From: Nitrospirota bacterium
GTDB taxonomy: Bacteria > Nitrospirota > UBA9217
Direction: 5' to 3'
Assembly (NCBI GenBank): GCA_963749655.1
Contig: CAVVOB010000015.1
Coordinates: forward strand, 122,742-186,741
DNA length: 64,000 nucleotides
Shown here: piece by piece, positions 37,267 through 56,390 of the stretch
Position numbering within the stretch: the stretch's first letter is position 1
Layout of the letters: each line of letters begins with the position of its first letter
Notes under the pieces: model-generated
Told to the model about the DNA's origin: nothing
Seen by the model: only the letters and a program-made list of their open reading frames with translations
The model's database searches: none
Program-made: the position numbers and the translations under genes

Positions 37267-39814
37267 ATGTCGACTTCCCCACTCAAGACGGAAATGATCT
37301 TCTGGCAGCAATCCGTTCCTGAACTCCTGAAACGTTTGAACGCGACCCCTGCGGGTCTATCGAGCAGCGAGGCGGCTGACCGGCTGAAACAATCGGGCCC
37401 GAACATGCTGCGGCCGCCGCGCAAGCGCGCACTGGTCCTTCAGTTCCTCGCCCGGTTCAAGAACCCCCTCGTCATCATCCTCCTCATCGCCAGCGCAGTC
37501 TCAGCCTTCACCGGCGATGTGACCAGCTTTCTGATCATCAGCGCCATTGTGGTCATGAGCGTTACCCTGGACTTTATCCAGGAGCACCGCGCGGGCAAGG
37601 CGGCCGAGGAACTGCGCCAGTCGGTGGCGATCCGCGTCCAGGCGCTGCGCGACGGAAAGAGCATTGAAATTCCCGCGGCAGCGCTGGTGCCCGGTGATGT
37701 CGTGTTGCTGTCCGCAGGCGACCTGATCCCCGGCGACGGCCGGGTGCTTGCGGCCCGGGATTTCTTTGTGAAGCAGGCGCTTCTGACCGGCGAATCTTAT
37801 CCCGTTGAAAAGTTTTTCCGCGAGCTGCCTGACGCAGGGCAGGACATGGCCGATGCCGTGAACTCCGTGTTCATGGGCACGTCCGTGGTGAGCGGCTCCG
37901 CGCAACGTGCTCATCTGCCGCACCGGACCGAACACTTCGCTGGGCGAGATCTCCGATACACTCACCACAAAGGCCCCTCCCACCGCATTCGAGCAGGGCA
38001 CCCAGCGCTTCGGGCTCCTGATCATGCGGTTTACGATCCTGCTCGTCCTCTTTGTCGTCCTGGCCAATGCCTATTTCCACCGGCCCTGGCTCGAATCATT
38101 CCTCTTTGCCGTGGCCCTTGCCGTCGGGCTCACGCCCGAGCTTCTGCCCATGGTCGTTTCCGTGACCCTGGCGCGGGGCGCCATGCGCATGGCAAAGAAG
38201 AAGGTGATCGTAAAACGGCTCGAATCCATCCACAACCTCGGGAGCATGGATGTGCTGTGCACGGACAAGACCGGTACGCTCACCGAGGCCCGCATCCATC
38301 TGGAGCGCCACGTGGACGCCCTCGGCAAGGACAGCAGCCGTGTTCTTGAGCTGGCCTATCTGAACAGCTTCTTCGAATCAGGGCTGCGGAGCCCCATGGA
38401 TGACGCCATTCTGGAGCACAAGGAGATAGACGTCACAGCCTGGAAAAAGATCGATGAAGTCCCCTTCGATTTCGAACGCAGACGGGTTTCCGTGATCATT
38501 GATAACGGCAAGGACAGGCTCCTCGTGGTAAAAGGAGCGCCTGACGATATCCTGGGCTTCTGCATCCTCTGCGAGAAAAAGGGAGAAGAGAACCCTGAAT
38601 CAATGGACGAAGCAGCGCTGGCCCGGGTCCGGGCGCTCCACGAGACCTTCGCCCGTGACGGATTCCGCGTCCTCGCCGTGGCCTGGAAAAAGGTGGAGCA
38701 AACGGAGCATCATGCCGTGGTGAACGATGAAACGGAGCTGGTCTTTGCCGGGTTCGCCGCCTTTTTCGATCCTCCGAAGAAGAGCGCTCAGGAGGCCCTG
38801 GCCAAACTCGCCCATGCGGGGGTGGCGGTCAAGGTCGTGACCGGCGACAATGAACTGGTGACCCGGCATATCTGCGAGAAGCTCGGCCTGCCCATAACCG
38901 GGATCCTGACCGGCGCGGACATGCAGGCCATGGATGACCACGCGCTCTCGGCCTGCGTGGAGAATGTGAATCTCTTTTGCCGGGTCAACCCCGCGCAGAA
39001 GAACAGGGTCATCCTCGCGTTAAAACAGCGCGGCAGGGTCGTCGGGTATATGGGCGACGGCATCAATGACGCGCCCTCGCTCCATTCAGCGGACATCGGC
39101 ATTTCCGTGGAAAGCGCGGTGGATGTTGCGAAAAGCGCGGCCGAGATGATCCTCCTGGAGCAGGACCTGAACGTGCTGCATGAAGGCGTCGTGGAAGGCC
39201 GGCGCACCTTCGGCAACATCATGAAATACATCATGATGGGAACGAGCTCCAATTTCGGGAACATGTTCAGCATGGCCGGGGCGACCCTCTTCCTCCCCTT
39301 TCTTCCCATGCTGCCGGTGCAGATCCTCCTGAACAATCTCCTGTATGACGTCTCGGAGATCCCCATCCCGCTCGACAGTGTCGACGAAGAATATCTCACC
39401 CAGCCCCGGCATTGGAACATGAACTTCATCCGCAACTTCATGTTGTCCGTGGGCCCGGTGAGCTCGGCTTTCGATTTTCTGACCTTTTACATCATGCTGA
39501 GCGTGTTTCATGCCGGAGAGAAGCTCTTCCATACCGGCTGGTTCATCGAGTCCATGGCAACGCAGGTGCTCGTGATCTTCATCATCCGCACGCGCCGCAA
39601 TCCGTTCAAAAGCCGTCCCAACCTCTGGCTTACGCTCTGTTCCCTTTCGGTCGTAGTCCTCGCTGTGCTGCTGCCGTATACGCCGCTCGGCAGGTACTTC
39701 GGATTCGAACCCCCGCCAATCTCCTTCTATGCGATCCTGGCAGGCTTGGTGTTCTTCTATCTCTTTGCGGTAGAAGGGATCAAGCAGTGGTTTTTCCGAC
39801 GATTTGCGGAATGA
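37267..39814 (+). CDS. mgtA: Magnesium-translocating P-type ATPase; one frameshift near 37905
   Basis: TGES, AVGLTPELLP, DKTGT, PFDFERRR, KGAP, TGDN, GDGIND, SSNFGN, QILLNNLLYD. Confidence 0.9.
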
Positions 39815-39868
39815 TGAAAGGGACCGCGTTTCTTGCCAAATTAGAGTTTCAGTACAGCAAGAAGAATT

Positions 39869-39928
39869 TATCAGTAACTTCCATATCAGTAACTTCCCGT
39901 TGACAACATCTTGCGTCAAGCATATATT
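39869..39928 (+). promoter_or_regulatory. Sigma70 promoter preceded by a 14-bp direct repeat, at the left edge of the low-GC block
   Basis: TATCAGTAACTTCC x2 (39869-39882, 39884-39897), then TTGACA(39900)-17bp-TATATT. Confidence 0.6.
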
Positions 39929-40140
39929 CGTGAAAATAAGGGAATGCGCGGCGCTGACCTTGCTAAATCAGGAAACACCGAAAATTCGTTCTTCCCCAGG
40001 GGGGCTAGCTATAGCTTGATATTTAGGCTGAGCACTAAAAAGCATTATTTTTGCTAAACTGGTAAAAACCAAAAATGCGGATTTTACCAGTTAGGACTGG
40101 GCTAGATAATTACTGGTTGATTTGGAGATTGACCGACTAT

Positions 40141-41064
40141 ATGAATAAGTCAGACGATGAAAGAGATCGCGCGCTGAAGAGGAAGTTCAATAAATTGTTG
40201 GCAGATTGGAAGCAAAATAATGGCCCTTGCATTATTTGCGGCGAAAAAGAGGGTAATGAAGAAGACGATTTACCTCCAAAAGTTCTCTACCCTCGGGCAT
40301 TAAGAAACAGCAAAACATTCTTCTACAAATTTCCAGCTTGCTCTGACTGCAATAGGGGGTCATCAAATGAAGATTTCCTGATGAGCCTTCTTTTGACATT
40401 TTGGCTTAATCAAGATGCTTATCTTAAAAATGTGGAGCCTACGGACCCCGATTTGCTAGCATTGCATAAACAAGCCGAGAGTCAGTGTCAAAATTCATCG
40501 TTAGCGGTTCAGGCACACATTCGGAAATTACTGCAGACGTATGCTGGTAATCACCCGGTCAATGGCATGCCTGCCATCAATATCGACAAAGTGCCTATAA
40601 ATAGAACACTCACGAAAATAGTTAAAGCAATTTACTGGTTGGAGACGGGTGGTGATATTCTTCAGAAGTATAATCCCGGCTGGTGGATCATGACTGCTAT
40701 CGATGCATCTAAAGAAACGTTCATTGAAAAGCACTTAAAGTTGAGTTCTTCAAACATTATGTGGGAAGATAAGTTTATTTCACATCACTCAATCGGCGGG
40801 CCGAAAAGCGGTGCCGATGGCTTTATATCATGTTCTCTTCATTTCTATTCTAATAGATCTGCCCAAAAAGGGATGCATTGGTTATTGATCGCTGCGCCGG
40901 ACACTACTAGATTAAACAATGATAGTCTATTCGAATTATGTGCAAATAACTTTGGAAAGCCTACCATAAGACCGAGATTATGCAAATATTTAATCACGCA
41001 TTTATTGGCCGCATTGGATCAAATATTATCTTCTCTCGGTATTTCCAGGAAACAGACAGTCTAG
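40141..41064 (+). CDS. HNH-like Zn-finger protein (cassette-like)
   Basis: CIICG...EDDLPPK...PACSDCN; low GC; GGAG RBS before ATG 40141 (ORF track starts at 40075). Confidence 0.7.
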   Translation: MNKSDDERDRALKRKFNKLLADWKQNNGPCIICGEKEGNEEDDLPPKVLYPRALRNSKTFFYKFPACSDCNRGSSNEDFLMSLLLTFWLNQDAYLKNVEPTDPDLLALHKQAESQCQNSSLAVQAHIRKLLQTYAGNHPVNGMPAINIDKVPINRTLTKIVKAIYWLETGGDILQKYNPGWWIMTAIDASKETFIEKHLKLSSSNIMWEDKFISHHSIGGPKSGADGFISCSLHFYSNRSAQKGMHWLLIAAPDTTRLNNDSLFELCANNFGKPTIRPRLCKYLITHLLAALDQILSSLGISRKQTV

Positions 41065-41077
41065 CGGACGAAAACAT

Positions 41078-41137
41078 TTTCAACCAGGCGCTCGACATCG
41101 ACTCGCCAAAATGCGGCGAGTCAGCGCCGCGTTGTCC
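41078..41137 (+). other. attC-like recombination site 1
   Basis: TTTCAAC-CAGGC-GCT[C]GAC...TCGCC-loop-GGCGA-GTCAGC-GCCGC-GTTGTCC: AAC/GTT ends, L-box pairing with an extrahelical C, just after a stop codon. Confidence 0.7.
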
Positions 41138-41184
41138 TTCCTCAGTGCTACGTGCAGATATCGATTGATATGAGGTTTTAGCCG

Positions 41185-44100
41185 GTGAGAACATATCTCA
41201 ATTGGTTACATATTTCTGACATTCACTTTCACGCGAAAACAGAATGGCGTGATAGTCACGTAAGAATTTCACTCCTCAACTTCCTGAAGGAAGAATTAGG
41301 GAAGAACGAAACTCTGAAGCCTGATCTGATCTTCTGTACCGGCGATATTGCCTTCGGCGAAGCGGATGCAGATAGCTTGGATGAACAATATGCCAAGTCT
41401 ATTGTATTTTTCGAAGAGCTGCGCGCCGCCTGCGGTCGCAATGGAACTTCTCTTCCTAAAGAAAGACTCTTTGTTGTGCCAGGCAATCACGATATCAACA
41501 GAAAGAGCATTGATGCCGCTGTGCAATCCAAGCTTCACACTTGGGCTAAGGATGCCCATCGCAATAGCGAAACAATCAATCAACAATTCAATGATAAACG
41601 GTACGAGGTCGGCATCGCACTAGCGCGACTTGCTGAATATGACAGATTTGTAAAGAATTATTTGCCGCATCATTATGATGAAGATGGGAGATGTCGTTAC
41701 GCACACATCGTCGATATAGATGGTTTAAAAGTAGCTATTGCAGGATTCAATTCAGCATGGTCATGTGCTGGCCCAGAAGACGATCGGCATCTATGGATGG
41801 CAGCGGAGTGGCAGTTCTATTCCGCAAAGGATAAAATCAGTGATGGTGCTATCCGTATCGGGCTGATGCATCACGCCGTAGATTGGTTAAATGAAGAAGA
41901 ACGTGATGTCACAAAACGTCAGATTGTAAATAAATATCATCCGTATCACTTCTGGTTGCACGGACACGTCCACAATGTTTGGATTGAGCCGGGCCAAATC
42001 AATATCACAATTGCTGCCGGTGCTACGAATGCTCAGAAAAGTGACGAATTCGGGATCAATTTGGTTCGACTTGATTTGGCAAATTCAAAAGGAAACGCGC
42101 ACCTTTTTTGCTACTCTCGAAAAAATGATGGCTGGACGTATATGCTTGACCCCAATCAGGCACCGCATGGCGTATGCATGTTTGATGTTCCACTCGGGCT
42201 GAAAAAATTATCTGCTTCAGCGCTGACGGCGTCGGCTAAAAGAAATCCACGACTGTTTGGACGAGAAGCGCTTCTTAAACGTGTTTCCGATGAACTCCAG
42301 CTGCAATCGTTCTTGCTAATCTACGGCTTGCGCGGAAACGGCAAAAGCTCTCTCATTGAAGCGCTGGGACGCCAGTCCCCATTGGTAGATAAAGAGCATG
42401 TGCGTTTTCTTGTGACACCGGCAACAACAGTCGATGATTTTTTCCAGCGCTTTGCCGCACTCCTAGGAGATACTTCTGAATTTCCAAAGACACCAAAGGG
42501 CGACTCTTCGGTCGTCGCAGAAGAAATTAAACGTCGCTATCCCAACCCACGCCCGGCATGGGTCTGGATCGATAGAGCTCACCATTTGATGGACAGCGCA
42601 GGTTTCCGTAGTCTTGAAGTACGCGCACTTCTGCGCGGACTTCAACTGGCGCTCGGATCACAGTGGCATTGGGTTTTCGAACTTCGGGAACGACCACCCC
42701 GTGGTCTGCTAGGTGCGGATGCCTGTGAATGCGAAGTGCCGGGTTTGAATAAAATCGCTCTTTCTGAATGTCTGGATCATGCTGCACCTACTGGAAAGGA
42801 AGTTGCTTGGCACTATACCGGCCAAGAACTCAAGGGTATTTATCAATGGCTTGGCGGAGGTCACGGACGACAGGCGCAACCACAGGCTATTCAGCTCTTG
42901 ATAGAAGTTGCTCGCGGTCTTGATGAAACTCCACTTCAGACGCTTGAAAGACACAGAAGTGATTTTGAGCAGAAGATTGAAGATGTCCTGCTTGGCGATT
43001 TGTATGGCAATGTTCTTAATGCTGAAGAACAGCGGTTGTTGCAAACCTTGAGCCTTTATAGAAATTCAATACCCCATGACCATGCTGAGGTCTTGGAGCG
43101 GCAGTTGAGTATACCCGGTTCTTGGGATGGCTTGGACCGTCGTTGTTTACTGACCGCGAATGATGATCACTCACAGTACTATTTGCATAGCCTTATATCG
43201 ATTTGGATCAGAACGCGCATGGGTTATGTCGGGCAAGAAGACGGCGATCCTGCCTTTGAAAGTTCGACCCCCGAAAGAGATCAGAAGCACGCGCGAGGTT
43301 TACACGCTGTCATTGCCACCTGCTGGCTAGATCAACTTCGGGGTAGTCGGCGCGCTACAAATCTGAATATTGATAGAGCGCTTGAAGCATTTTATCATCT
43401 CACAGCTGCCGGCGAGGCGGATCGGATTCAGAGTATTGCCACAGATTTACTGACAGGTAATAAAGTTTGGGCGATTCGACGTATTGAGAATTTATATACC
43501 TACTTATACAAATCCAAAGCTCCTCTTGCTCAACTTCGTGCCGCTCTTGAATACGCAGAGATACTTGAACCCGACAACGACAAAGTCCAACGCTTTCTCG
43601 GCGAGTGCTGGCGTAAAGCTGAAGGGTGGAAGAGCCCCAAAGCACTGGGATATTTCGAACAAGCCTGCCGATTAAATCCTTCCTTCCCTCCGTACTGGGC
43701 CAACCTCGGCAAAGCCTTACTCGCGCAAGGACGCGACGGTGCGAATCAGTTCATTGATAATTTCGCGGCGTTGGAGACAGAAACCCCGGCAGCAATAAAC
43801 GATTATGTCCGATCAGTTTATTTTGATTGTCTCCATGCGCTTGGTAACTCAAAACTTGCCTCAAAGCTACGCTTGGAAAGAATCGATGCCGGATCGAATC
43901 ACCCGGCTTTCTATGTAGACGAAGCTAAAGCGCGGCTTAAAGCACGGGATCCAAAGGGTGCATTAGAAATCCTTGATTTGGCGCAAAAGAGTAGTGCTGT
44001 TGATCACTTCACGGAAGTTGTACGCGCTGAAGCATTGCAGTGTTCGGGTAAGCGAGATCAGGCATCCGCATTACGTATGGCAAAAATTCAGGCTGGGACG

Positions 44101-44877
44101 CGTCACACTACTTTTTATATGGAAGAAGCCAAATCATGTTTAGAAGTGAATGATCCGAAAGGTGCGTTGAAAATCCTTGATTTAGCCGTAAAGAATGGCT
44201 TGGCCGATGAAAAAGTATACACGTTGCGATCGACCGCAATGTATTTAGACTGGAAATTTGAGCAATCTACCGTAAGACGTATGGAGCGCAAACAAGCTGG
44301 CATACGTGAAGCCGATTCCTATGGTGTTGAAGCTAAAGAATGCCTGCGTACTGGTGATGCAAAAGGTGCCCTGGATGTCCTCGATTTAGCGGAGAAGAAT
44401 GGATGCGTAGACGATTTTCTTGTTTCTATCCGTGCAACGGCCTTGGATCAGCTGGGGAAAGCAGATGAAGCCTCGGCTCTTCGTATGGGTAAGATAAAGG
44501 CAGGCAGTAGAGACCCTATTTTCCATAATGACGAAGCCAAAGCTCAATTAAGGCACGGAAACGTAAACAAAGCAATCGATATTTTTGAACGAGCCGTAAA
44601 AAAGGGATGTACTGATGAATATTCTTACGCGATATTGGCAAACGCTCTGCACAAGTCTGGAAAGTTGGACAAAGCAACTGCTATCCGTATGGATCATATC
44701 GCAGCAGGCAGTAGCAATCCTGCATTTTATGCCGATGAAGCCAAAACGCGAATAGAGATGAACGATCAGAAGGGTGCCCTATATATCCTTAATTTGGCAG
44801 AAAAGAATGGTTGTGCGAATGAATATATTGTAACCCTGCGAGCAAAATTGCTTCGCGATGGTATTACTTCTGAGTAG
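41185..44877 (+). CDS. Calcineurin-like metallophosphoesterase - STAND (NB-ARC-like) NTPase - TPR-like repeat protein
   Basis: SDIH, GD, GNHD, HH, GHVH; LFGRE, Walker A GLRGNGKS, Walker B WVWID; five 68-aa helical repeats at the C-terminus. Confidence 0.85.
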   Translation: MRTYLNWLHISDIHFHAKTEWRDSHVRISLLNFLKEELGKNETLKPDLIFCTGDIAFGEADADSLDEQYAKSIVFFEELRAACGRNGTSLPKERLFVVPGNHDINRKSIDAAVQSKLHTWAKDAHRNSETINQQFNDKRYEVGIALARLAEYDRFVKNYLPHHYDEDGRCRYAHIVDIDGLKVAIAGFNSAWSCAGPEDDRHLWMAAEWQFYSAKDKISDGAIRIGLMHHAVDWLNEEERDVTKRQIVNKYHPYHFWLHGHVHNVWIEPGQINITIAAGATNAQKSDEFGINLVRLDLANSKGNAHLFCYSRKNDGWTYMLDPNQAPHGVCMFDVPLGLKKLSASALTASAKRNPRLFGREALLKRVSDELQLQSFLLIYGLRGNGKSSLIEALGRQSPLVDKEHVRFLVTPATTVDDFFQRFAALLGDTSEFPKTPKGDSSVVAEEIKRRYPNPRPAWVWIDRAHHLMDSAGFRSLEVRALLRGLQLALGSQWHWVFELRERPPRGLLGADACECEVPGLNKIALSECLDHAAPTGKEVAWHYTGQELKGIYQWLGGGHGRQAQPQAIQLLIEVARGLDETPLQTLERHRSDFEQKIEDVLLGDLYGNVLNAEEQRLLQTLSLYRNSIPHDHAEVLERQLSIPGSWDGLDRRCLLTANDDHSQYYLHSLISIWIRTRMGYVGQEDGDPAFESSTPERDQKHARGLHAVIATCWLDQLRGSRRATNLNIDRALEAFYHLTAAGEADRIQSIATDLLTGNKVWAIRRIENLYTYLYKSKAPLAQLRAALEYAEILEPDNDKVQRFLGECWRKAEGWKSPKALGYFEQACRLNPSFPPYWANLGKALLAQGRDGANQFIDNFAALETETPAAINDYVRSVYFDCLHALGNSKLASKLRLERIDAGSNHPAFYVDEAKARLKARDPKGALEILDLAQKSSAVDHFTEVVRAEALQCSGKRDQASALRMAKIQAGTRHTTFYMEEAKSCLEVNDPKGALKILDLAVKNGLADEKVYTLRSTAMYLDWKFEQSTVRRMERKQAGIREADSYGVEAKECLRTGDAKGALDVLDLAEKNGCVDDFLVSIRATALDQLGKADEASALRMGKIKAGSRDPIFHNDEAKAQLRHGNVNKAIDIFERAVKKGCTDEYSYAILANALHKSGKLDKATAIRMDHIAAGSSNPAFYADEAKTRIEMNDQKGALYILNLAEKNGCANEYIVTLRAKLLRDGITSE

Positions 44878-44896
44878 AAACGAAATACGACGCTGG

Positions 44897-44954
44897 TTCC
44901 AACCAGGCGCTACATCGACTCGCCAAAAAGCGGCGAGTCAGCGCCGCGTTGATC
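44897..44954 (+). other. attC-like recombination site 2
   Basis: TTCCAACCAGGCGCTACATCGACTCGCCAAAAAGCGGCGAGTCAGCGCCGCGTTGATC; almost identical to site 1, ~20 bp after the stop. Confidence 0.7.
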
Positions 44955-45354
44955 CCGAAGGAAAAGATCATCAGGCTCGGGAACGATATCGTCCCGGACG
45001 CCTCAGGGTTGAAGGTTTTGTGTTTTGGTTCATGGAGGCCCCAACCACACCTTCTGAAAAGTGGTTTGCTTGTCCGAGGCTTGCCGATAATGGTCCAATA
45101 AGCTCCAGACCTACACCGGCGGCCAAACTGCCCTTGCAGAGGGCCGCTGGGCATAATTTTGCTTGGTACTTTTACTTCAGCGATTTGAATACCTTCGCGT
45201 ATGTTGCAGGAGACAGCGCGAGTTTTGAATGGACTTAACCCGACGCAATAATCTCAACCACGCCGTACCTTTAGGCGGAAGTAGTCAAGAATTCACGCGC
45301 TTCTCCCTTGCCCGCAACTGTCGAGTGCCCCTGGTAGCCCGTTGCGAAAACTGA

Positions 45355-45383
45355 TTGATAAACAATAGCCATATTGTTATAAT
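45355..45383 (+). promoter_or_regulatory. TA promoter with palindromic operator
   Basis: TTGATA-17bp-TATAAT; the spacer contains AACAATA-GCCA-TATTGTT. Confidence 0.65.
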
Positions 45384-45415
45384 TGCAACAACAGTAAATA
45401 GACTGATCGTGAGGT

Positions 45416-45631
45416 TTGATAAATATGAGCCCGACAAAAACTATAATTTCAAAAGCCTTGAACCTTAAACCGGCGGAAAAATCCCTTCTTATCGAAGCCT
45501 TGCTTCGGAGCCTTGATGTAGCTGATCCGAAAATTGAAAAGATATGGGCGGTTGAAGCCGAGAAAAGACTCAAGGCATACAAGGCCGGCAAGGTTAAAAC
45601 GGTCTCATTCGAGGATATGTTCGCTAAATGA
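45416..45631 (+). CDS. Addiction-module antitoxin
   Basis: ALNLKPAEK...IEKIWAVEAEKRLKAYKAGK...FED; overlaps the toxin gene. Confidence 0.85.
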   Translation: MINMSPTKTIISKALNLKPAEKSLLIEALLRSLDVADPKIEKIWAVEAEKRLKAYKAGKVKTVSFEDMFAK

Positions 45632-45921
45632 AACTGGAGATTCTCGAAATTGCCCGTCGGGAATATGAAGAGGCTAAAGAGTTTTACGAGGCAGAGCAAC
45701 CCGGCTTAGGATCCCAATTCAAGGAACAAATCAGGCATTCCCTTCTCCGCATTCAGCAATACCCTCAAGCATGGCCGCCGGAGCGCAAGGCAATCCGGCG
45801 ATACATCGTCCACAAGTTCCCATATAAGATTCTCTATTCCATTCAAGCTGACAAAATTGTCGTTCTTTCATTCGCGCATTTACACCGGCAACCGGGCTAC
45901 TGGATTGACAGACAGAAGTAA
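45628..45921 (+). CDS. RelE/ParE-family toxin
   Basis: ARREYEEAKEFYE...PGLG...RRYIVHKFPYKILY...HLHRQPGYW. Confidence 0.9.
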   Translation: MKLEILEIARREYEEAKEFYEAEQPGLGSQFKEQIRHSLLRIQQYPQAWPPERKAIRRYIVHKFPYKILYSIQADKIVVLSFAHLHRQPGYWIDRQK

Positions 45922-45966
45922 AATCTCTTGTTTGAGCGGACCGTGGCCTGTACTATCGCACTATGA

Positions 45967-46025
45967 ATTCAACCATCGCATCCACAGCGACGTGCCAAAG
46001 TCGGCGCGTCAGCGCCGTGTTCATG
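45967..46025 (+). other. attC-like site 3 (divergent or chimeric)
   Basis: ATTCAAC (RYYYAAC)...GACGTGCC-loop-GGCGCGTC-AGCGCCGT-GTTCATG; right arm shared with sites 1-2. Confidence 0.55.
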
Positions 46026-46091: not shown

Positions 46092-46229
46092 TTATTCATC
46101 CCCTCGCGCCTTCCCTTCTTTGGCTGCCTTCAAAATCTCTTCAGCAGTATGTCCTTTTCTTATGATCCCCTTGATGTCGGCCAGGCCTTTGTCCTCCACG
46201 ACCTTCCAGTAATGATCAAGTACGGTCCG
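46092..46229 (-). pseudogene. Fragment of a universal stress protein gene
   Basis: Translates RTVLDHYWKVVEDKGLADIKGIIRKGHTAEEILKAAKEGKA, versus RTVLDYYQKALADKGLTNVKQIIRKGHPAEEILKTAGEEKA in 57020-57487. Confidence 0.75.
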
Positions 46230-46441
46230 CTCGACCGTCCTGGTGCAGAAAAGGATGCCTTCCCGGGGCTATTCCCAAGGGTTCAAGTCCCTGGAATATT
46301 AAAATGAGTTAGAGCTTTCCCTCCGGTATAGTCGTATAATGAATATATCCCAGAGAAGCGTAGATTCAGACATCTCTCCGAATTCACCCGTCTCTTCGAC
46401 CGTCTTCAGAAACATATCCTGTTAAACAATGAGGAGGCACT

Positions 46442-46846
46442 ATGCTGGAAAAGAATTTGCCGGGAGGTAACACTCAGTCCTATTGCGGGAAGTGCACGAC
46501 GGCTCGCGATCACACCATCATGACGATGGAGGGAGACGCAATCATCAAGGTGAGATGTCAGAACTGCGGCAGTATGCACAAATTCAGCGATCCGCTCGTT
46601 GTTCATAAAGTCCGCAAACCGAGAGTGAAAAAAGACGATGCAGCGACAGCGGAAGCAGTCTGGGCGGCCGGTCTCGCGGAGGCAAAGGGAAAAGAGCGCG
46701 ATTACAGCATGGCTACGAATTATCGCATAGGCGACATTGTCAATCACCAGACCTTCGGCAAGGGCATCGTGAAGAAGCTTTATGTCAACAAATGCGATAT
46801 GCTCTTCAAGGACAGGGAACGGCTGATGGCCTCGACCAACAGCTAA
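46442..46846 (+). CDS. Hypothetical Zn-ribbon protein
   Basis: CGKC...CQNC, C-terminal GDIVNHQTFGKGIV; GAGGAGG RBS. Confidence 0.75.
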   Translation: MLEKNLPGGNTQSYCGKCTTARDHTIMTMEGDAIIKVRCQNCGSMHKFSDPLVVHKVRKPRVKKDDAATAEAVWAAGLAEAKGKERDYSMATNYRIGDIVNHQTFGKGIVKKLYVNKCDMLFKDRERLMASTNS

Positions 46847-46915
46847 ATACGGCCCTGTCTTACTAATAAGATCATTAATGCAAACGAAGTAACCATTGTT
46901 ACATCCGGAAAAGTC

Positions 46916-46963
46916 CCCCCCCCCCAACCCTCTCCCCTCTGGGGAGAGGACAAAGGTGAGGGG
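46916..46963. repeat. CCCTCTCCC/GGGAGAGG REP-like palindrome
   Basis: Reverse complement CCCCTCACCTTTGTCCTCTCCCCAGAGGGGAGAGGG matches the intragenic copy at 49244-49284. Confidence 0.7.
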
Positions 46964-47357
46964 CAAAGCAGTAACGAATTTAAATGCGTTTGTATTAGTA
47001 ATGCCGTCATTCCGGATTTGAGTCGCCTGCCCCGGTAAGTTTGAAGCCGGGGCGGGAATGACGATGGGCGGCTGTACCTTCGAACTTTCAATTCTAATTT
47101 TTTACCGTTGTTTCACAGCGCACCTTCCTTCATGCCGGCGTTCGGACCGTAACGGCCTGATAACAATCTTGTTATACTAATCTTATAAGCCGGGACCAAA
47201 ACCTTTTTTGCCGCAAAGGACCCAGAAGACACCGAGAAGCGGAAATCCTGCAGTCATGAAATTTTTCCAGCCCTTCTCTGTGTGCTCGGTGACCTCTGTG
47301 GCTGATTCTTACGAACAATATCATTTCCGGCACCTGCAGCAAAAAGGAGCGTACCAT

Positions 47358-50300
47358 TTGAAGTTGAGCAACAAGACCATTTTCGGCGACCTGCCCGATG
47401 TCCTGGCACGTCTTCAGGGAAACGACCTGGAAGCAAAGTGCAAGCGTGTACGAGCCGCCGCTGCGATCGGAATTGTTCAGCAGCGACCAGATGGAAGCAG
47501 CACGGCAGGACCCTGGCGGGTTTGCACACGCTCGAGCCCCGGACACGCTCCTGACCGGCTTCTGCCGCGGTTGGCCGAGAATGAAGCCATCCTGACCGGG
47601 ACCCGCAGCCTGCTGGTAGAGGCGGTCAAGACCGATCGCCGGATCACGCCGGCGGCTGAATGGCTGCTCGACAACTTCTATCTGATCGAAGAGCAGATCC
47701 GCATGGCGCGTAAACACTTGCCGAAGGGTTACAGCCGGGAGCTGCCCCGCTTGCTGGATGGACCGTCCGCCGGACTTCCGCGCGTGTATGACATCGCCCT
47801 GGAGACGATCTCGCACGGCGACGGCCGCGTGGACCCGGAAGGTCTCAGCAGTTTTCTTGCGTCCTACCAGACCGTCACGGTCCTGAAGCTGGGAGAATTA
47901 TGGGCCGTCCCCATCATGCTGCGCCTGGCGTTGATCGAGAATCTCCGGCGCGTCGGGGCGCGGATCGCCGCCGACAGGATCGACCGAGACCTCGCCGACT
48001 ACTGGGCGGACCTGATCACCGAGTGTCGTTGCCAAGGACCCGAAGAGTCTGATCCTGGTCCTTGCGGACATGGCGCGCTCGAACCCGCCGCTCAAGAGCG
48101 CCTTTGTCGCGGAATTCGCCCGCCGGCTTCAGGGACAGGGCCCTGCCCTGGCAATGCCGCTCACCTGGATCGAGCAGCACCTCTCCGAGTGCAGCATGAC
48201 GATCGATCACATGGTGCAGTCGGAGAACCAGCAGCAGGCTGCTGACCAGGTTTCGATGAGCAACAGCATCGGCAGCCTCCGGTTTCTGGGCGCAATGGAC
48301 TGGCGGACGTTCGTCGAGACGATGAGCGTTGTCGAGAAGACCCTGCGCGAAGACCCCCGCGGCACCTACGGCAACATGGATTTTTTTACCCGCGATCGAT
48401 ACCGTCACGTGGTGGAAAGGATTGCAAAGAGCGGCCGTCTGTCCGAAGCGGAGGTGGCATCCGCAGCAGTCCGGCTTGCCCGCGAGAGCGCGGCCCGGGG
48501 CGACGGAAATCGCGACCACGACGATCGCGCGGCCCATGTGGGCTTTTACCTGATAGACAAGGGACTGGCGCAGCTCGAACGCCTGGCAGGGGTCCGGCGT
48601 GTCCGCCTCCGAGTCCCTTCGAAGGGCAAGCAGCCGGTTTCCTTTGTTCCTCTATCTCGGCACGATCGTGCTGATCACGACTTGCTTTTCACCAACCTCT
48701 GCTGGCGAAGGCGCAGAGTGCCGGCTTGCACCACTGGCTGCTCCTTTTGACGGGTATCCTCTGCATTGCTCTCCACGAGTCAGCTGGCTATCGCCGTGGT
48801 GAACTGGCTTGCTACGGTGCTCGTAGCGCCGCATTCCCTGCCGCGAATGAACTTCTCCAAAGGCATCCCCCCTGAATCGCGGACCCTGGCCGTTGTCCCG
48901 ACCATGCTCACGAGCACCCGGAACATCGAGGACCTGATCGAGGCGCTGGAAGTCAGGTTCCTGGCAAATCGCGACGACAACCTGCTTTTCGGACTGCTGA
49001 CTGATTTTCAGGACGCGTCAGAGGAAACGTTGCCCGAGGATGAACCGCTGTTGCTGCTCGCCCAACAGAGAATCGAAGAGCTGAATGAAAAATACGGCGA
49101 TGGAAACAAGCGACAGGTTTTTCCTTTTTCACCGCCCCCGCAGATGGAATCCCATGGAGCGCGTCTGGATGGGTCACGAACGCAAACGGGGAAAGCTTGC
49201 GGATTTGAATTCGTTCTTGCGCGGCGGTGTTTCCTCCTCACCTCCCCCCTCACCCTTGCCCTCTCCCGCGAGGGGAGAGGGGGGTAATAGCGGCTTCTCC
49301 CTCGTCGTCGGCAATACCACTGCTTTGTTGAACATAAAGTACGTGATCACCCTTGACACGGATACCCAGCTGCCGCGCGATTCGGCGAGGCAGCTTGCGG
49401 GGGCCATGGCGCATCCGCTGAACCGTGCGCTGTACGACGAAGGCAAACAGCGCGTTGTCGCCGGGTACGGCATCCTTCAGCCGCGGGTCGGCGCGAGCCT
49501 GCCGGGCACAAACCGATCGCTCTATGCGCGCATGGAAGGGAGCGATGCGGGCATCGACCCCTATACGCGCGCCGTCTCCGATGTTTACCAGGACCTCTTC
49601 TATGAAGGCTCCTTTATCGGCAAGGGGATCTACGACGTCGACGCCTTCGAGCAGGCGCTCGAGGGACGCTTCCCCGAGAACCGGATCCTGAGCCACGATC
49701 TTATTGAAGGATGTTTCGCCCGGTCCGGACTGCTGAGCGACGTCATGGTGTTCGAGGAATATCCTTCCCGCTACAGCGCCGACGTGAGCCGCCGCCACCG
49801 GTGGATCCGCGGCGACTGGCAGCTCCTGTCCTGGCTGCGGGGGGTTGTCCCCGGTCCCGGCCTTTCCAGGCAGCGCCGCAAGAATCCCCTCTCGCTGCTG
49901 TCCCAATGGAAGCTCTTCGACAACCTTCGCCGCAGTCTCGTGCCTTCGGCCTTGACACTCCTGCTGGCGCTCGGCTGGACGGTTCTCTCGTCGCCCTGGT
50001 TCTGGACCCTGTCGATGATCGGGATCATCCTGGTCCCTTCATTGATTTCCTCTATCCTGGACCTGCTTCGAAAACCGATAGACGTGCTTCCCAGACAGCA
50101 TCTCGCTGCCGTAGGGCACTCCCTGAGGACGCGCCTTGTTCAGGATTTGTTTACGCTTGCCTGCCTTCCCTACGAGGCCTATTTCAGCCTCGATGCGGTC
50201 CTGCGTACGATCGGCGGATGTTCGTAACGCACAAGCGGCTTCTTGAATGGAGTCCCTCAGGCGACGGGGATGAAAAAAACCGGACAGGCCTCGCTTCGAC

Positions 50301-53300
50301 GTGCCGGACCATGTGGTTCGCCCCATTTCTGAGCGTCCTCATCGTGATATATTCGGCCTTATCGAATCCCGTTGCATTGGGAGCGGCCCTGCCCCTCCTC
50401 GCGCTCTGGCTTGCTTCCCCTGTCATCGCGTGGTGGATCAGCAGGCCGCTTGCCTTACAGGTCGAACGATTGACGGACGACCAGACCCTTTTTCTCCGAA
50501 AGCTTTCCCGAAAAACCTGGTCCTTCTTCGAGACCTTTGTCGGGCCGGAGGACAATTGGCTGCCGCCTGACAACTATCAGGAGCATCCTGTTCCCGTTGT
50601 CGCTCATCGCACGTCGCCCACGAACATGGGGCTCGCGCTGCTGGCCAATCTCTCGGCCCTTGACTTCGGCTACCTTGCAGCGGGGCAGTTCATCGACCGC
50701 ACGACGAAGGCATTCTCTGCGATGCAGACCCTTGCACGATACCGGGGCCACTTTTTCAACTGGTACGACACGCGGTCCCTGAAGCCGCTCGCGCCCAGGT
50801 ATATATCCACCGTGGACAGCGGGAATCTTGCCGCCCATCTGCTCACCTTGCGGCAGGGTCTGCTGGCGCTTCCCGATCAGAAGATCGTGCATCCGAAATT
50901 GTTCAGCGGGCTCTCCGACACCCTGCAGGTTCTCGTGGACGAGTTGGCAGCTGAAGAATCAACTTCTGGTCAGCATGAAGAACATATTTACGGCGAAAAC
51001 GCCTCGGGAGGATTAAAGCCGGGGCGCCTTCGCGGTTCAAGCCTTTTTGATTCAACCGGTCTCGATCAACTTCAAATCGACCTGGAGTCCGCCTACACTT
51101 CCCCGCCGACCACGCTCGCGGCTGCGAGGCTCCGCCTTGAGGCCCTGACAACGTCCGCGGAGAAACTGTTTTCCCGGATCGACGATTCCAATATCCACCG
51201 GGAAAATCAGGCAGCACGGTGGGCGCGCGCCTTTGCCGCGCAATGCCGGGCCGCGCTTGACGAACTGACCCTTCTCGCCCCGCTGTCCGATCGCGATGCC
51301 GATGAGATCCCGACGCTGCGCGATCTGGCGCAACGAGGAAACGACATCGCCGCAGAGAGGATCAAGGCCATCGAACGGCTCGCAGTGCAGTGCCGATGAA
51401 CTGAGCCGCATGGAGTACGACTTCCTGTTCGACAGGTCGAGTCATTTACTGGCCATCGGGTACAACGTCGACGGCCGCAGGCGGGACACGAGTTACTACG
51501 ATCTGCTGGCTTCGGAAGCGAGACTCTGCAGTTTCGTCGGGATTGCGCAGGGTCAATTGCCGCAGGAGAGCTGGTTTGCCCTGGGCCGACTGCTCACGAA
51601 CGCCGGCGGAGCGCCGGTCCTCGTTTCCTGGAGCGGTTCGATGTTCGAATACCTCATGCCGCTCCTGGTGATGCCGACGTATGAGCGTACACTGCTCGAT
51701 GAGACCTGCAAAGCCGCCGTGGCCAGGCAGATCGAGTATGGGAAAGAGCGCGGGGTGGCCTGGGGCATTTCGGAATCCGGCTACAACACGATCGACGCTC
51801 AGCTCAATTACCAGTACCGGGCCTTCGGCGTTCCCGGTCTGGGGCTCAAACGCGGCCTCGCCGACGATCTGGTCGTCGCGCCCTATGCCTCGGCGCTTGC
51901 GCTCATGGTGGCGCCCGAGGAGGCCTGCCTGAATCTGCAGCGGCTCGCTGCGGAAGGCGTTGAGGGGAATTTCGGGTTCTATGAAGCGATCGATCACACG
52001 CCTTCCCGTCTGCAGCGCGGCCAAACGAGCGTCGTGGTCCGGTCCTTCATGGCCCATCATGAGGGCATGAGCTTTCTCTCTCTTGCCTATCTGCTGCTGG
52101 ACCGTCCGCATGCAGAAACGCTTCGAAGCGGACCCCTTGTTCCAGGCGACCATGCTGCTGCTCCAGGAGCGGGTGCCGAGGGCCACGGCCTTCTATTCGC
52201 AGATTGCCGAACGTTCCGAGTCCTACACTGCTTCCCCCGGCGCCGAAGCCGTCGGTGCGCGTTTTCACCGGCCCGGACACCCTGTCTCCCCAGGTGCAGC
52301 TGCTGTCGAACGGCAGATACCACGTGATGATCACGAACGCCGGGGGCGGGTACAGCCGCTGGAAGGACATCGCGATCACGCGCTGGCAGGAAGACGGCAC
52401 CCGCGACGATTGGGGCGCATTCTGTTACATCCGCGACGCGGGAAGCGGGGAGTTCTGGTCAACGGCGTATCAGCCTGCGCTCAAACGCTCGAAGAATTAT
52501 GAGGCGATCTTCTCGGAAGGCCGGGCCGAGTTTCGCCGCCGGGACCATGACATCGACACCCATACCGAGATCGCCGTATCTCCCGAGGATGATATCGAGC
52601 TGCGCAGGATCACGATCACCAACCGCGGCCGGACACGCAGAGAGATCGAGGTCACGAGTTACGCGGAGGTCGTCCTTGCGCCGCCTGCCGCGGACGCGCT
52701 GCATCCGGCGTTCAGCAATCTTTTTGTTCAGACGGAGATCATCGAGCAACGGCAGGCGATCCTCTGCACCCGCCGTCCCCGCTCCCGGGACGAGCACTCG
52801 CCCTGGATGTTCCATCTGATGGCCGTCCACGGGGCGGAAATCGGCGACGTTTCCTACGAGACCGACCGCCTGCAGTTCATCGGACGGGGAAGGACCGTTG
52901 CCGACCCGCAGGCAATGGACGGCCCGGGGGCGCTCTCGGGAAGCCAGGGCTCGGTGCTCGACCCGATCGTCGCCATCCGATATCGGATCACTCTTGACCC
53001 GGACAAATCGGCAACGATCAATATCGTCACCGGGATCGGCTGAAACCCGGGACCTCTGCATGGGCCTTGTCGAGAAATATCAGGACCGGCGACTTGCGGA
53101 CCGCGTCTTCGATCTCGCCTGGACCCACAGCCAGGTGCTCCTGCGCCAGATCAATGCCACGGAAGCCGATGCGCAGCTCTATGGACGCCTTGCCGGCTCC
53201 GTGCTCTATGCCAATTCTTCTCTGCGCGCCGATCCGGGCGTTATCCTGAAGAACCGCCGCGGACAGTCCGGCCTCTGGGGCTACTCCATTTCCGGAGATC

Positions 53301-56122
53301 TCCCGATCGTGCTGCTGCGGATCGAGGATCCGGCAAATATCGACCTGGTGCGCCAGCTCGTACAAGCCCACGCGTACTGGCGTCTCAAGGGGCTGGCGGT
53401 GGACCTCGTGATCTGGAACGAAGACCACGCCGGGTACCGGCAGCTGCTGCAGGAGCAGATCATGGGGCTCATTGCCGCAGGCGTCGAAGCGAACGTGACG
53501 GAACGTCCGGGCGGCATCTTCGTGCGACCGGTGGACCAGATATCGAACGAGGACCGGATCCTGCTTCAAACAGTCGCCCGCGCCGTCATCACCGACAGCC
53601 TCGGCCCGCTCGCGGACCAGGTAAACCGTCGCGCGCTTGCAACGGCGCCCGCGCCGCGCCTCATCCCGACGCGGGCCTACAGCCCTGAAGCCCCTCCTCT
53701 CGCGATACACGCCCGCGAAGACCTGTTGTTCTTTAACGGTTTCGGAGGATTCACGCCTGACGGCCGCGAATACATCATTACGACCGCAACGCGGCAGAAG
53801 ACCCCGGCGCCCTGGGTGAATGTGCTGGCAAATCCGCATTTCGGGACGATTATTTCGGAGAGCGGAGCTGCCTACACCTGGAGCGAAAATGCCCACGAGT
53901 TCCGCCTCACTCCCTGGAACAACGATCCCCTGTCCGATTCCGGCGGAGAGGCGTTTTATCTCCGTGATGAAGAAAGCGGCCATTTCTGGTCCCCCTTGCC
54001 GCTGCCGGGCTGCGGGACGATGCATTACGTCACCCGCCACGGGTTCGGCTACAGCGTCTTTGAACACATGGAGGACGGGATCCGTTCGGAGGTCTGGGTT
54101 TACGTTGCAATGGATGCGTCGGTCAAATTCACGGCACTGAAGGTGAAAAACGAATCAGGCCGTCCGCGCCGTCTCTCGGCCACCGGTTACGTGGAATGGG
54201 TGCTGGGAGATCTGCGGCCGAAAACGGCAATGCAGGTGATCACCGAGATCGATCCCAAAACCGGCGCGATCTTCAGCCGGAACCCCTATAACCCGGAGTT
54301 CGCCGACCGGACGGCATTCTTCGACGCAGGCGAGGCGACCCGGACCGTGACCGGCGACCGGACCGAGTTTCTCGGTCGGAACGGCACGCTTCAAAGACCG
54401 GCTGCCATGACCCGTGCGCGGCTTTCCGGAAGGGTCGGCGCCGCCCTCGACCCCTGCGCCGCCATCCAGGTACCCTTCGATCTGGCGGACGGGCAGGAGC
54501 GGGAAATCATCTTCAGGCTCGGCGCAGGGAGAAACGCCGATGACGCCGGCAACGTGGTGCGCCGCTTCCGGGGATCCGCAGCCGCGCGCGGGGCGCTTGA
54601 GAAGGTCTGGGAGTATTGGAACCGCACCCTCGGCGCGGTGCAGGTGGAAACGCCCGACCAATCCGTCAACATGCTGGCCAACGGCTGGCTGCTATACCAG
54701 ACGCTGGCATGCCGTGTCTGGGCGCGAAGCGGATACTACCAGTCCGGCGGCGCATTCGGTTTCCGCGACCAGCTGCAGGACGCGATGGCGCTCATTCATT
54801 CCGAGCCGCGGCTTGTGCGCGAGCACCTCCTCCTCTGCGCGGCCCATCAGTTCAAGGAGGGAGATGTCCAGCATTGGTGGCATCCCCCTGTGGGGCGGGG
54901 CGTGCGCACGCGCTGTTCCGACGATTTTCTCTGGCTGCCCCTGGCCGCGTGCCGCTATGTTCTCGCAACCGGAGACACGGGAGTGCTGGATGAAACGGTC
55001 CGTTTCATCGAGGGCCGCCCGATGAACCCGGACGAGGACTCGTATTACGATCTTCCCCGCCCGTCCGAGGAATCGGCAAGCTTGTACGAGCACTGTGTGC
55101 GGGCCGTTCTGAAGGGCCTCACCCGCGGCGAGCACGGCCTACCGCTCATGGGCTCCGGTGATTGGAACGACGGCATGAACCTGGTCGGCAGGCACGGCAA
55201 GGGAGAAAGCGTCTGGCTCGGATTTTTCCTGCATGAAGTGCTGGTGCGGTTCTCCGAGATCGCGCTTCTGCACAACGATCCGTCATTCGCCGAACGCTGC
55301 CAAGAGGAAGCCGCTCGTTTGCAGGCGAGCATCGAGGAGCACGGCTGGGACGGCGAGTGGTATCGGCGCGCTTACTTCGACGACGGCTCTCCGCTGGGTT
55401 CTGCAAGCAACTCCGAATGCCGTATCGATTCCATTGCGCAAAGCTGGTCCGTTCTCTCCGGCGCCGGGGATAGGGAGCGCTCCCGCAAGGCAATGGAAGC
55501 GGTGGACAAGCTTCTTGTTCGACGGGAGCATGGCCTGATCCAGCTCCTGGACCCTCCCTTCGACAAATCGGATCTGGACCCCGGCTACATCAAAGGCTAC
55601 GTTCCCGGTGTAAGGGAGAACGGCGGGCAGTATACCCATGCGGCGATCTGGACAGCCATGGCCTTTGCCGCGTTGGGCGACAGCAACCGCTCATGGGAGA
55701 TGCTGGCAATGATCAATCCGATAAACCATGCGAGCTCAGCCGAAAAGATCGCGATCTATAGAGGAGAACCCTACGTTGTCGCCGCCGACGTTTATGCGTC
55801 CCCTTCGCACATCGGGCAAGGCGGATGGACCTGGTATACGGGATCGGCAGGATGGATGTACCGGCTTATCGTTGAATCGCTTCTCGGGGTGCGGCTCGAA
55901 ACGGACAAGCTGCGCTTCGAGCCATGCCTGCCTGGGGCATGGGATGCGTTCAAGGTGCACTATCGGTACCGGGAAACCATTTACCATATCACTGTTCGGC
56001 AACGACGCGACCATGGCGGGACGGTCGTAACCGTCGACGGGATTGAGCAAATCGGCGAGACCATTTCCCTTATCGACGACCGTCAGGAACACACGGTCGA
56101 GGTGGGACTTGCGGCAAGGTAG
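47358..56122 (+). CDS. Cyclic beta-1,2-glucan synthase-like protein with C-terminal GH94 phosphorylase domains (Cgs/NdvB-like), split by many frameshifts
   Basis: Consecutive ORFs carry [86 protein letters not shown]; TTG start after AAGGAG is inferred. Confidence 0.85.
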
Positions 56123-56280
56123 ATTTCTACCTCGCGGATTTACCGATACAGAACTCACAAACCTGCAGGCTGGCTGCGTGCATGCAGATCTCAAGGTGCC
56201 CTGTCATCCCACCCCGAAAACAGCATCGTTCTTCATAACTATACCCTATTGCCCAAAAGCTCCTTTTCCGGTATAGCCGG

Positions 56281-56390
56281 GTAGGTCGGGTAGAACGTCT
56301 TTTGTGAAACCCGACGCTTATTTGCCGGAATACTCGCAGTAGCGCAAGGGACCGAAGATGTCGGGTTTCGCTGCGCTCTACCCGACCTAC
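56281..56390. repeat. GTAG-type REP inverted doublet
   Basis: GTAGGTCGGGTAGAACG...GAAACCCGAC and TGTCGGGTTTCGCTGCGCTCTACCCGACCTAC. Confidence 0.75.

Follow-up and report, generated by a model that had tools for sequence, protein, structure and literature searches.

We examined a block at positions 40141-46025 of a 64,000-nucleotide stretch of Nitrospirota DNA (the window), in which three co-oriented units, each an open reading frame (ORF) or operon, end in an imperfect palindrome bounded by AAC and GTT. The evidence argues that these units are genuine integron cassettes in an array without an integrase of its own, i.e., a cluster of attC sites lacking integron integrases (CALIN), and we put the probability of this reading at about 0.85-0.9. 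An integron cassette consists of a gene or operon with an attC site behind it. When the bottom strand of attC is single-stranded, it forms a hairpin that the AAC/GTT triplets close; bases left unpaired on one of its arms direct the strand choice of the integrase (IntI), which cuts between G and TT. The window corresponds to C15:122742-186741 of a metagenome-assembled genome (MAG) of 4.27 Mb (39 contigs, 86.6% complete, 5.84% contamination), labelled G000 here; G001-G024 denote its relatives and L048 a metagenome contig.

The passages of Cury 2016 (PMC4889954) drawn on here define a CALIN as a same-strand group of at least two attC sites, spaced by less than 4 kb, that has no integrase close to it. 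All three sites of the window are on the + strand, separated by 3,759 nt and 1,012 nt. No match to the integrase model TIGR02249 was found in the window at E ≤ 0.001, in agreement with an earlier reading of these letters made without database searches (the sequence-only reading), and the sole matches on contig C15 (77517-78311) lay outside the window and far under the cut-off. Therefore, the block is a CALIN under the published definition.

The attC sites and their family in the genome

The genome carries intI on two other contigs. The gene at C29:9153-9992 (- strand) scored 317.9 bits against TIGR02249 (cut-off 265), and the gene at C38:149610-150547 (+ strand) was split in two frames of 178.6 and 132.8 bits; the same search of 14 control genomes gave no match at the cut-off (0/14). 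nhmmer seeded with the three window sites and iterated over the genome yielded 39 sites, 17 of them on C29 (all +, 13.6-36 kb) and 5 on C38 (all -, 137-148.5 kb). In each array, the sites start next to intI and extend outwards from it on the strand opposite to the gene, as in the canonical layout. The check that the sequence-only reading had proposed, a genome search for intI and for more copies of the repeat, was thus answered on both counts.

A covariance model was built from 21 intI-adjacent sites (16 of the 17 then known on C29 and 5 of 5 on C38); one C29 site that straddled two fetched loci was omitted, and the window sites were excluded. Across the genome, this model gave 45 matches at E ≤ 1, comprising 20 on C29 (all +, downstream of the - strand intI), 5 on C38 (all -, upstream of the + strand intI), 3 in the window, clusters on C19 (4), C14 (3) and C30 (3), and scattered matches on C20 (2), C28 (2), C27, C35 and C12. 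The window matches were site 1 (41078-41137, +, 60 nt; AAC 41082-41084, GTT 41131-41133; 66.8 bits, E 6.7e-22), site 2 (44897-44954, +, 58 nt; AAC 44901-44903, GTT 44948-44950; 52.3 bits, E 2e-16) and site 3 (45967-46025, +; AAC 45971-45973, GTT 46019-46021; 39.6 bits, E 9e-12). The best non-site match in the 64-kb window reached 11.7 bits (E 0.22). Same-family attC sites were also present in the congeners G003 and G012.

The three palindromes had been placed at these limits by the sequence-only reading, exactly to the base, and the lower-GC block that it described was also real, with a G+C content of 0.40-0.50 across 40-47 kb and 0.54-0.65 in the flanks. The limits are drawn by the outer 7-mers, which in sites 1-3 are TTTCAAC, TTCCAAC and ATTCAAC for R'' and GTTGTCC, GTTGATC and GTTCATG for R'; the conserved 5' AAC and 3' GTT triplets bound 3/3 sites. 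Each site follows a co-oriented ORF, with 13 nt (site 1), 19 nt (site 2) and 45 nt (site 3) between stop codon and site. The near identity reported for sites 1 and 2 amounted to 93-94% across 45-54 nt.

The site family has a conserved structure, which we tested as a 4-bp AAC/GTT closure, a 6-bp stem, a single unpaired base, a 3-bp stem and a 5-bp stem. With the unpaired base, 84.7% of cells paired, and covariation was 0.296 in comparison with a shuffle mean of 0.096 (0/500 shuffles as high); every slid control performed worse. The pairs flanking the unpaired base swap on both sides (21-49, GC 13 and CG 7; 23-47, CG 14 and GC 6). A pairing register without the single unpaired base was rejected, with 7 of the 21 sequences broken at three pairs, in the part of the stem where the accepted register has its two-sided swaps. 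All excess bases lie on the top-strand 5' arm, that is, the bottom-strand 3' arm, and the extrahelical bases of described attC sites are on this same arm.

We considered whether the palindromes are a dispersed intergenic repeat, similar to repetitive extragenic palindromes or miniature inverted-repeat transposable elements, or transcription terminators, with AAC and GTT at their ends by chance. The genome does hold other repeats, e.g., a dispersed element of approximately 130 nt at 46876-47005 that occurs on at least six contigs (copies on C13, C14, C19, C28, C35 and C38); about 20 family matches lie away from an integrase; and an Rfam 15 scan of 39-48 kb at E ≤ 1 gave no attC-like family and one chance snoRNA-like match. 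However, 25 of the 45 matches form two arrays, each uniform in strand and each starting next to intI in the canonical divergent orientation, and the family conserves a one-sided unpaired base and has a covarying stem. The sequence contains no T-run after any of the three sites. Furthermore, homology of the middle cassette with another array breaks at GTT triplets (see below), and an element encoding a 515-aa DDE transposase is inserted directly after the GTT of several sites. Sites of at least 30 bits had a co-oriented ORF (at least 60 aa) ending within 60 nt upstream in 33 of 40 cases, as against 380 of 1,925 random positions; that is, the pattern named by the sequence-only reading as refuting, sites scattered genome-wide regardless of gene ends, was not seen. 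A non-integron origin of the palindromes is largely refuted, and we regard it as extremely improbable.

The conserved sequence directly after GTT was found at no fewer than seven different attC sites, and in the five that were scanned, it leads into the transposase gene (DUF772 and DDE_Tnp_1_6; C29:22342-24000, C29:31001-32700, C38:139300-140955, C38:145000-146650 and C38:146850-148488; one C29 copy is frame-split). It also follows the sites at C14:216352-216410 and C30:119994-120053. The element looks like an insertion sequence that targets attC sites.

Several properties weigh against assigning the block to integron cassettes. The R-box consensus is RYYYAAC/GTTRRRY, and canonical attC sites have a second single extrahelical base where this family has a 6-nt bulge; the family's central spacer is also mostly paired. 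As the sequence-only reading had cautioned, the R-box bases outside AAC/GTT depart from consensus in the 7-mers of all three sites. The relevant sections of Cury 2016 (PMC4889954) give the AAC/GTT triplets as the conserved part. The sites in the covariance model had first been gathered by similarity to the window sites and come from this genome only, whereas the position of the family beside intI is independent of that gathering. Finally, the start of cassette 1 is undefined, and the third cassette's gene pair also exists outside cassettes, as described below. Taken with these points, the shared structured family of the window sites and approximately 25 sites beside intI, together with the discreteness of the middle cassette in a second array, bore out the CALIN reading.

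The cassettes and their genes

For cassette 2, there is direct evidence of a single, discrete unit. Measured from G|TT to G|TT, it extends from T41132 to G44948 (3,817 bp) and contains a single gene, ORF2 (41185-44877, +), which encodes 1,230 aa. The independent metagenome contig L048 encodes a 1,227-aa homologue of ORF2, and its DNA is 85.2% identical over 3,829 aligned columns to window positions 41125-44950; elsewhere in the window, L048 matches at the repeat level only. Homology sets in 6 nt ahead of the site 1 GTT and runs as far as that of site 2. Upstream of the gene, L048 carries a different 150-aa ORF, a same-family attC site at 664-722 (60.2 bits) and then a 121-nt AAC...GTT palindrome that ends in GTTGTCC, as site 1 does; downstream, an attC site at 4600-4652 (30.4 bits) is followed by unrelated DNA. 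Because the TTGTCC start and the gene's own attC site are kept in L048 while the neighbours differ, cassette 2 is a real, discrete cassette.

The size of the middle cassette had been flagged as far above typical, and this was correct. Approximately 2 kb is quoted for the largest known cassettes in the part of Cury 2016 (PMC4889954) concerned with cassette size; cassette 2 is about double this 2016 maximum, yet below the 4-kb clustering rule. It is the largest single-gene unit of this genome. The spacings in the C29 array are 541-2,911 bp, and at least two longer C29 units contain an insertion sequence.

ORF2 combines an N-terminal effector domain, a STAND P-loop NTPase and C-terminal repeats in one protein, as do the STAND/NLR-like anti-phage NTPases (Avs, bNACHT and DS-8). 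Its Pfam domains are Metallophos (residues 8-264), nSTAND6 (357-504, E 1.4e-55) and TPR families (approximately 800-1230); the repeat region includes five 68-aa units, i.e., 204-nt repeats in the DNA. The metallophosphatase motifs are all intact (D12xH, G53D, GNHD at 100 and GHVH at 260), as is the Walker A motif (GLRGNGKS at 381). The family is large and has a wide distribution; among 8,000 candidates scored, 452 relatives were found at E ≤ 0.001, mostly of 950-1,250 aa and annotated mostly just as metallophosphoesterase or AAA ATPase. The N-terminal domain also matches DS9_1 and the PADLOC candidate PDC-S60 (1.4e-32) together with a PADLOC effector model. Counting against membership of the DS-8 family, ORF2 scored 92.5 bits against NF053861 (DS8_antiphage) over N-terminal profile positions 1-280 of 994, well under the equivalog cut-off of 790. 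Judged by its sequence, ORF2 is DS-8-like in architecture, yet neither a DS-8 orthologue nor a member of that family.

By analogy with these proteins, ORF2 would act as a STAND/NLR-type anti-phage sensor, in which recognition of a phage cue would fall to the TPR repeats, oligomerisation to the nSTAND6 NTPase and the effector role to the N-terminal metallophosphatase, as in DS-8. We lean towards such an anti-phage role for ORF2. The sequence-only reading had described the array as loaded with putative defence genes; this is a good hypothesis for ORF2 through its domain-level likeness to DS-8, and the gene pair of cassette 3 is more likely an array stabiliser.

Cassette 1 carries ORF1 (40141-41064, +; 307 aa), an HNH-like gene of a family without a Pfam model. 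Searches of Pfam and NCBIfam gave no family and no Pfam HNH match, and all 84 homologues are unnamed or "hypothetical". In the alignment, the N-terminal CxxC...DH...CxxCN region, an HNH-like zinc finger, has invariant CxxC and CxxCN and a near-invariant DH; the C-terminal alpha/beta domain has no convincing fold match, and the window copy has an extra C-terminal tail of about 27 aa. The predicted model (pLDDT 89.7) gave no Foldseek match in the PDB at E ≤ 0.001. The HNH lead comes from three weak lines, namely fold, Atlas naming and PADLOC. With a wide aligner, the N-terminal part matched IscB HNH domains (Z 5.3 and 5.0, under the tool's reliable level), Cap5 (Z 4.3), McrA (3.9) and a phage HNH endonuclease (3.6); the Atlas clusters nearest a stored ORF1 homologue are auto-named HNH endonuclease (0.96-0.97); and PADLOC gave PtuB at E 1.6e-3. 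ORF1 may be an HNH-derived protein. The weakness of the fold matches tells against this assignment, and so does column H43, where 27 of 29 rows have a near-invariant His and the other two, those of the window and of its closest relative, have Asp. Nuclease activity of the window copy is doubtful because this presumed catalytic His is replaced.

The ORF1 family is cassette-borne in other phyla as well, with homologues beside hairpins of the attC type. Six loci with full-length homologues were read (a seventh matched only 25 residues), and clear AAC...GTT hairpins with one-sided unpaired bases followed the homologue in two of the six; one locus was doubtful and three had none. In a delta-proteobacterial MAG, a 95-nt AAC...GTT hairpin with a one-sided unpaired base follows the gene, and in a Nitrospinae MAG, AAC...GTT hairpins lie both before and after it. 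A two-gene system of ORF1 and ORF2 was rejected, as an ORF2 homologue was present at 0 of the 6 ORF1 loci and the gene upstream in L048 is a different one. Since no ORF1 locus has an ORF2 homologue, ORF1 and ORF2 are independent cassettes.

Cassette 3 (G|TT to G|TT, 44949-46019; 1,071 bp) carries a toxin-antitoxin (TA) pair. The antitoxin gene (45416-45631, +; likely start ATG 45425) belongs to the Unstab_antitox/TIGR02574 family (PF09720, 1.9e-16, 60.2 bits with a cut-off of 23.3; TIGR02574, 32.6 bits with a cut-off of 31.9). The toxin gene (45628-45921, +; 97 aa) is of the ParE family (PF05016, 3.5e-7, 31.1 bits with a cut-off of 23) and overlaps the antitoxin stop by 4 nt. Upstream lies a promoter-like site, TTGATA-17-TATAAT (45355-45383, +; 11/12 matches), with an extended -10, i.e., TG before the second hexamer. 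The TA pair with its own promoter had been recognised from the letters, and the profile searches agreed. The pair would stabilise the array, and a paralogous ParE/antitoxin pair is the last cassette of the C29 integron. The module, promoter included, lies in a 573-nt block that is 91% identical to a locus of the congener G003, where no attC site was found; therefore, the module exists outside cassettes too, which is the point against the cassette reading mentioned above.

Because the array has no Pc promoter, expression would depend on cassette-borne promoters. A second promoter-like site, TTGACA-17-TATATT (39900-39928, +; 11/12 consensus matches), lies in the 326-nt non-coding spacer between the stop codon of a P-type ATPase gene (39814) and ORF1. 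It is a consensus match only, because the region contains 11 such sites in total in comparison with a shuffle mean of 10.3, with no excess. The site at 39900 would serve ORF1, perhaps with read-through into ORF2, and that at 45355 would serve the TA pair.

For comparison, the cargo of the C29 and C38 integrons was scanned and proved to be similar. Among 48 ORFs, 29 had no Pfam family, and those with one included ParE/antitoxin, HigBA, GmrSD_N, HNH and DUF4062.

Competence of the sites, origin and setting of the array

The sites differ in structural integrity. Bottom strands were folded as single-stranded DNA with 200 shuffles each. Site 1 (-18.4 kcal/mol, z -4.05) and site 2 (-18.6 kcal/mol, z -5.10) formed end-closed hairpins, and 0/200 shuffles were as stable in either case; site 3 reached -12.6 kcal/mol (z -2.08, 7/200 shuffles as stable). 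The description of the sites as imperfect palindromes thus suits sites 1 and 2, and site 3 in part only, since it has kept its triplets and not its fold. In site 1, 18/18 model pairs form, and the extrahelical C noted by the sequence-only reading is the single unpaired C of the top strand (G of the bottom strand), 9 nt after AAC, in a register backed by the covariation of the family.

The other two sites yield evidence that counts against functional attC sites. In site 2, the single unpaired base is lost through a 2-nt deletion relative to site 1, and a 5-nt bulge and one broken pair remain. The site after the gene in L048 (4600-4652) carries a deletion at the same position; therefore, the deletion is old and travels with the cassette. 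The minimum-energy fold of site 3 is not an end-closed hairpin. AAC/GTT and the central core are intact in site 3, and the 5' and 3' arms do not pair (0/5 spacer pairs and 2/3 L-box pairs); in the covariance-model alignment, five pairs are broken after a 3-nt gap. The site combines a TCCAC-type 5' arm with a GTCAG-type 3' arm, although arm types always co-vary in the site family, and the 3' arm matches that of the C38 site at 140955-141013. Site 3 is probably a hybrid of two different sites, or else decayed. A hybrid would have arisen by recombination between the conserved cores of two sites, with deletion of whatever lay between. From their appearance, site 1 seems fully competent, site 2 doubtful and site 3 dead.

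These differences bear on whether the block is an active, freely shufflable defence array, the stronger form of what the sequence-only reading had inferred, in which IntI acting in trans would excise and re-insert all three cassettes and defence genes would be reordered or donated on demand. Complete platforms with the same attC family exist in this genome, site 1 is intact, cassette 2 has moved between arrays at some time, and CALIN cassettes are thought to be mobilisable in trans in the portion of Cury 2016 (PMC4889954) that deals with them. However, the arms of site 3 are non-complementary and do not fold, the single extrahelical base is missing from site 2 and from the corresponding L048 site, and both intI reading frames are interrupted. 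We therefore consider free shuffling of all three cassettes unlikely; movement of any of them would need IntI supplied in trans, and it is doubtful that they are still mobilisable in this cell. With just one competent-looking site among the three, the CALIN is probably partly fossilised and not freely shuffling.

As a tentative proposal, which we think possible and a little short of probable, the metallophosphatase-nSTAND6-TPR and ORF1 families would travel as cassettes in Nitrospirota-type integrons as candidate single-gene anti-phage systems, and site 3 would record the loss of a cassette through homologous recombination between attC cores, not through the integrase. If this is true, the 3.8-kb STAND cassette shows that integrons are able to carry NLR-sized immune sensors, approximately twice the former size limit.

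The state of the integrases adds to the case against an operating system. There are two frameshifts in the C29 intI and one in the C38 intI, and their nearest relatives in the database are intact proteins (477-479 aa), a few of which carry the name "integron integrase" of Nitrospirota. The P-type ATPase gene (37267-39814) has one frameshift and reads in two overlapping frames, with relatives intact at 851-868 aa, and the glucan-synthase-like gene at 47208-56122 (approximately 9 kb) reads in eight overlapping frames. Because these neighbouring housekeeping-type genes are also frame-broken, the intI breaks may be assembly indels and not marks of pseudogenes. The frame breaks reflect either an indel-rich assembly or unusually many pseudogenes. 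As a separate observation, the integron integrases of this lineage have an extra N-terminal region of approximately 160 aa (477-479 aa in comparison with the 315-position family profile).

Such breaks also raise the question of whether the array is an assembly or binning artefact, with cassettes of an intI-bearing array or of another organism mis-joined at repeats and site 3 as the false join. The source is a MAG with 5.84% contamination in 39 contigs, many frames are broken, site 3 looks as if two site types had been fused, one giving the 5' half and the other the 3' half, and synteny with relatives ends exactly at the ATPase stop codon. Nevertheless, the array is internal to a contig of 186,741 nt, approximately 18 kb from its end; the left junction lies outside repeats; and the core common to the site types is just about 20-25 nt long. 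The contig of the closest relative ends right past the ATPase, as expected if arrays sit there, the congener G013 has an integrase at the same locus, and same-family attC sites occur in two congeners, as noted above. We regard an artefact as very unlikely.

The locus next to the ATPase appears to have held an integron. Nine of 41 related genomes, including this one, had a TIGR02249 match above the cut-off. In G013, intI (- strand) lies 1.2 kb downstream of the orthologous ATPase at a contig end, in the position and orientation needed for an integrase serving the + strand cassettes of the window. Against this, intI lay past the ATPase in just 1 of 8 relatives read there. In G001 and G010, the ATPase is followed by genes whose orthologues here lie approximately 11 kb beyond the C38 intI. 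Comparison of these sequences points to a variable ATPase-adjacent locus that once held an integron, with the platform rearranged or lost in this genome. The array would most likely have arisen through rearrangement or loss of the integrase formerly at the locus; alternatively, the cassettes may have been inserted at a secondary site. Rearrangement and integrase loss are two of the four routes to a CALIN in the account given by Cury 2016 (PMC4889954).

The left edge of the array is blurred. In 8 of 8 relatives with readable DNA past the orthologous ATPase, homology stops at window positions 39798-39823, at or a few bases from the ATPase stop codon, and the DNA that follows is different in each. 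Since all eight diverge from the window and from each other after this stop codon, the start of cassette 1 is undefined, as counted above against the cassette reading. The spacer before ORF1 contains 12 nt of the attC 3' arm as an exact inverted copy (39947-39958, - strand), and CCGCGTT occurs at 39826-39832, just past the ATPase stop codon; both may be due to chance or be what is left of a lost site.

ORF1 is preceded by a leader of approximately 80-100 nt at 40035-40140, with a 14-nt inverted repeat and a GATAAT -10-like box. The leader recurs with 73-79% identity at C28:338016-338097, before an unrelated 135-aa gene about 1.3 kb from a lone attC site, and in two related genomes (G003:C18:4383-4461; G024:C1:287404-287479 and C14:371398-371473). 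It is possibly a regulatory leader common to several genes, or else a small mobile element.

Just past site 3, an internal fragment of a universal stress protein (USP) gene (46092-46268, - strand) lies outside any recognisable cassette and marks the decayed distal edge of the array. It shares 68% protein identity and 78% DNA identity with an intact USP gene at window positions 57020-57487. A second, diverged arrangement of antitoxin-ParE followed by an opposed USP gene occurs at 56420-57487, past the glucan-synthase-like gene, with a TTGACA-17-TATATT promoter-like site, a 74-aa antitoxin, a ParE truncated at 59 aa and an intact 155-aa USP gene (- strand). The copy beside site 3 shows the reverse, with ParE intact and a USP fragment only. 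A dispersed inverted-repeat element of approximately 125 nt at 56270-56395 also flanks the TA module in G003.

ORF5 (46442-46846), which encodes a 134-aa zinc-ribbon-like protein with a weak CPxCG_zf match, is a candidate fourth cassette. Paralogues are present on C28 and C20, and that on C28 lies directly 3' of the lone attC site; relatives were found in 5 of 5 related genomes searched. However, the other paralogues and orthologues sit in unrelated contexts, and the covariance model found no attC site after ORF5 in the window scan.

Comparison with known integrons and defence systems

This kind of element is already described, as CALINs in 2016 and as defence cassettes in integrons in 2024-25, and existing knowledge of how integrons work is unchanged. 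Four features go beyond the textbook case, namely the lineage of the host; cassette 2, for its size and type and because it is directly shown to be a single cassette; the visible decay that affects two sites out of three; and a congener's integrase at the same locus. The array adds an environmental, non-proteobacterial example to integrons that store anti-phage genes, and the comparison of two arrays identifies a 3.8-kb gene of the STAND/NLR type as a bona fide cassette. The array also illustrates decay, with an integrase missing where a congener keeps one, a site that has lost its bulged base and another whose arms are mismatched. ORF2 and the ORF1 family offer two concrete candidates for phage-challenge tests.

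DS-8 is a validated single-protein system with a metallophosphatase and a NACHT NTPase, in which mutations in either domain abolish defence and the substrate is unknown, as described in the part of the source that covers this system (PMC13092281). ORF2 resembles it in that a single polypeptide starts with a metallophosphatase, its motifs intact, and continues with a P-loop STAND NTPase. In contrast, the NTPase of ORF2 is nSTAND6 and not NACHT, which argues against orthology, and ORF2 has a long C-terminal TPR-like repeat sensor.

CALINs are common and often occur in genomes that also encode IntI, according to the survey sections of Cury 2016 (PMC4889954). The array described here shares with those CALINs its three same-strand sites, the absence of a nearby integrase, non-resistance cassettes and complete integrons elsewhere in the genome. 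It differs in its 3.8-kb cassette and in the structural impairment of two of its three sites, and its sites were scored with a genome-derived model. With ParE/TIGR02574 TA cassettes of chromosomal integrons, cassette 3 has in common two Pfam models above cut-off, a 4-nt overlap, its own promoter and the C29 paralogue, whereas the same module occurs in a congener without attC.

Anti-phage systems have been reported in cassettes of mobile and sedentary integrons, some of them self-promoted and some counted in CALINs, and the Darracq and Kieffer cassettes were tested against phages in Vibrio and enterobacterial hosts, as stated in the portions of the two preprints cited here (bioRxiv 10.1101/2024.07.02.601686; 10.1101/2024.07.02.601719). 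The present case differs in its host, a Nitrospirota MAG, and in its single 1,230-aa STAND protein, and is known from sequence alone. As in those integrons, a candidate defence gene forms a cassette, one cassette is self-promoted and TA cassettes lie alongside; as in sedentary arrays, the attC sites within the genome are highly similar to one another.

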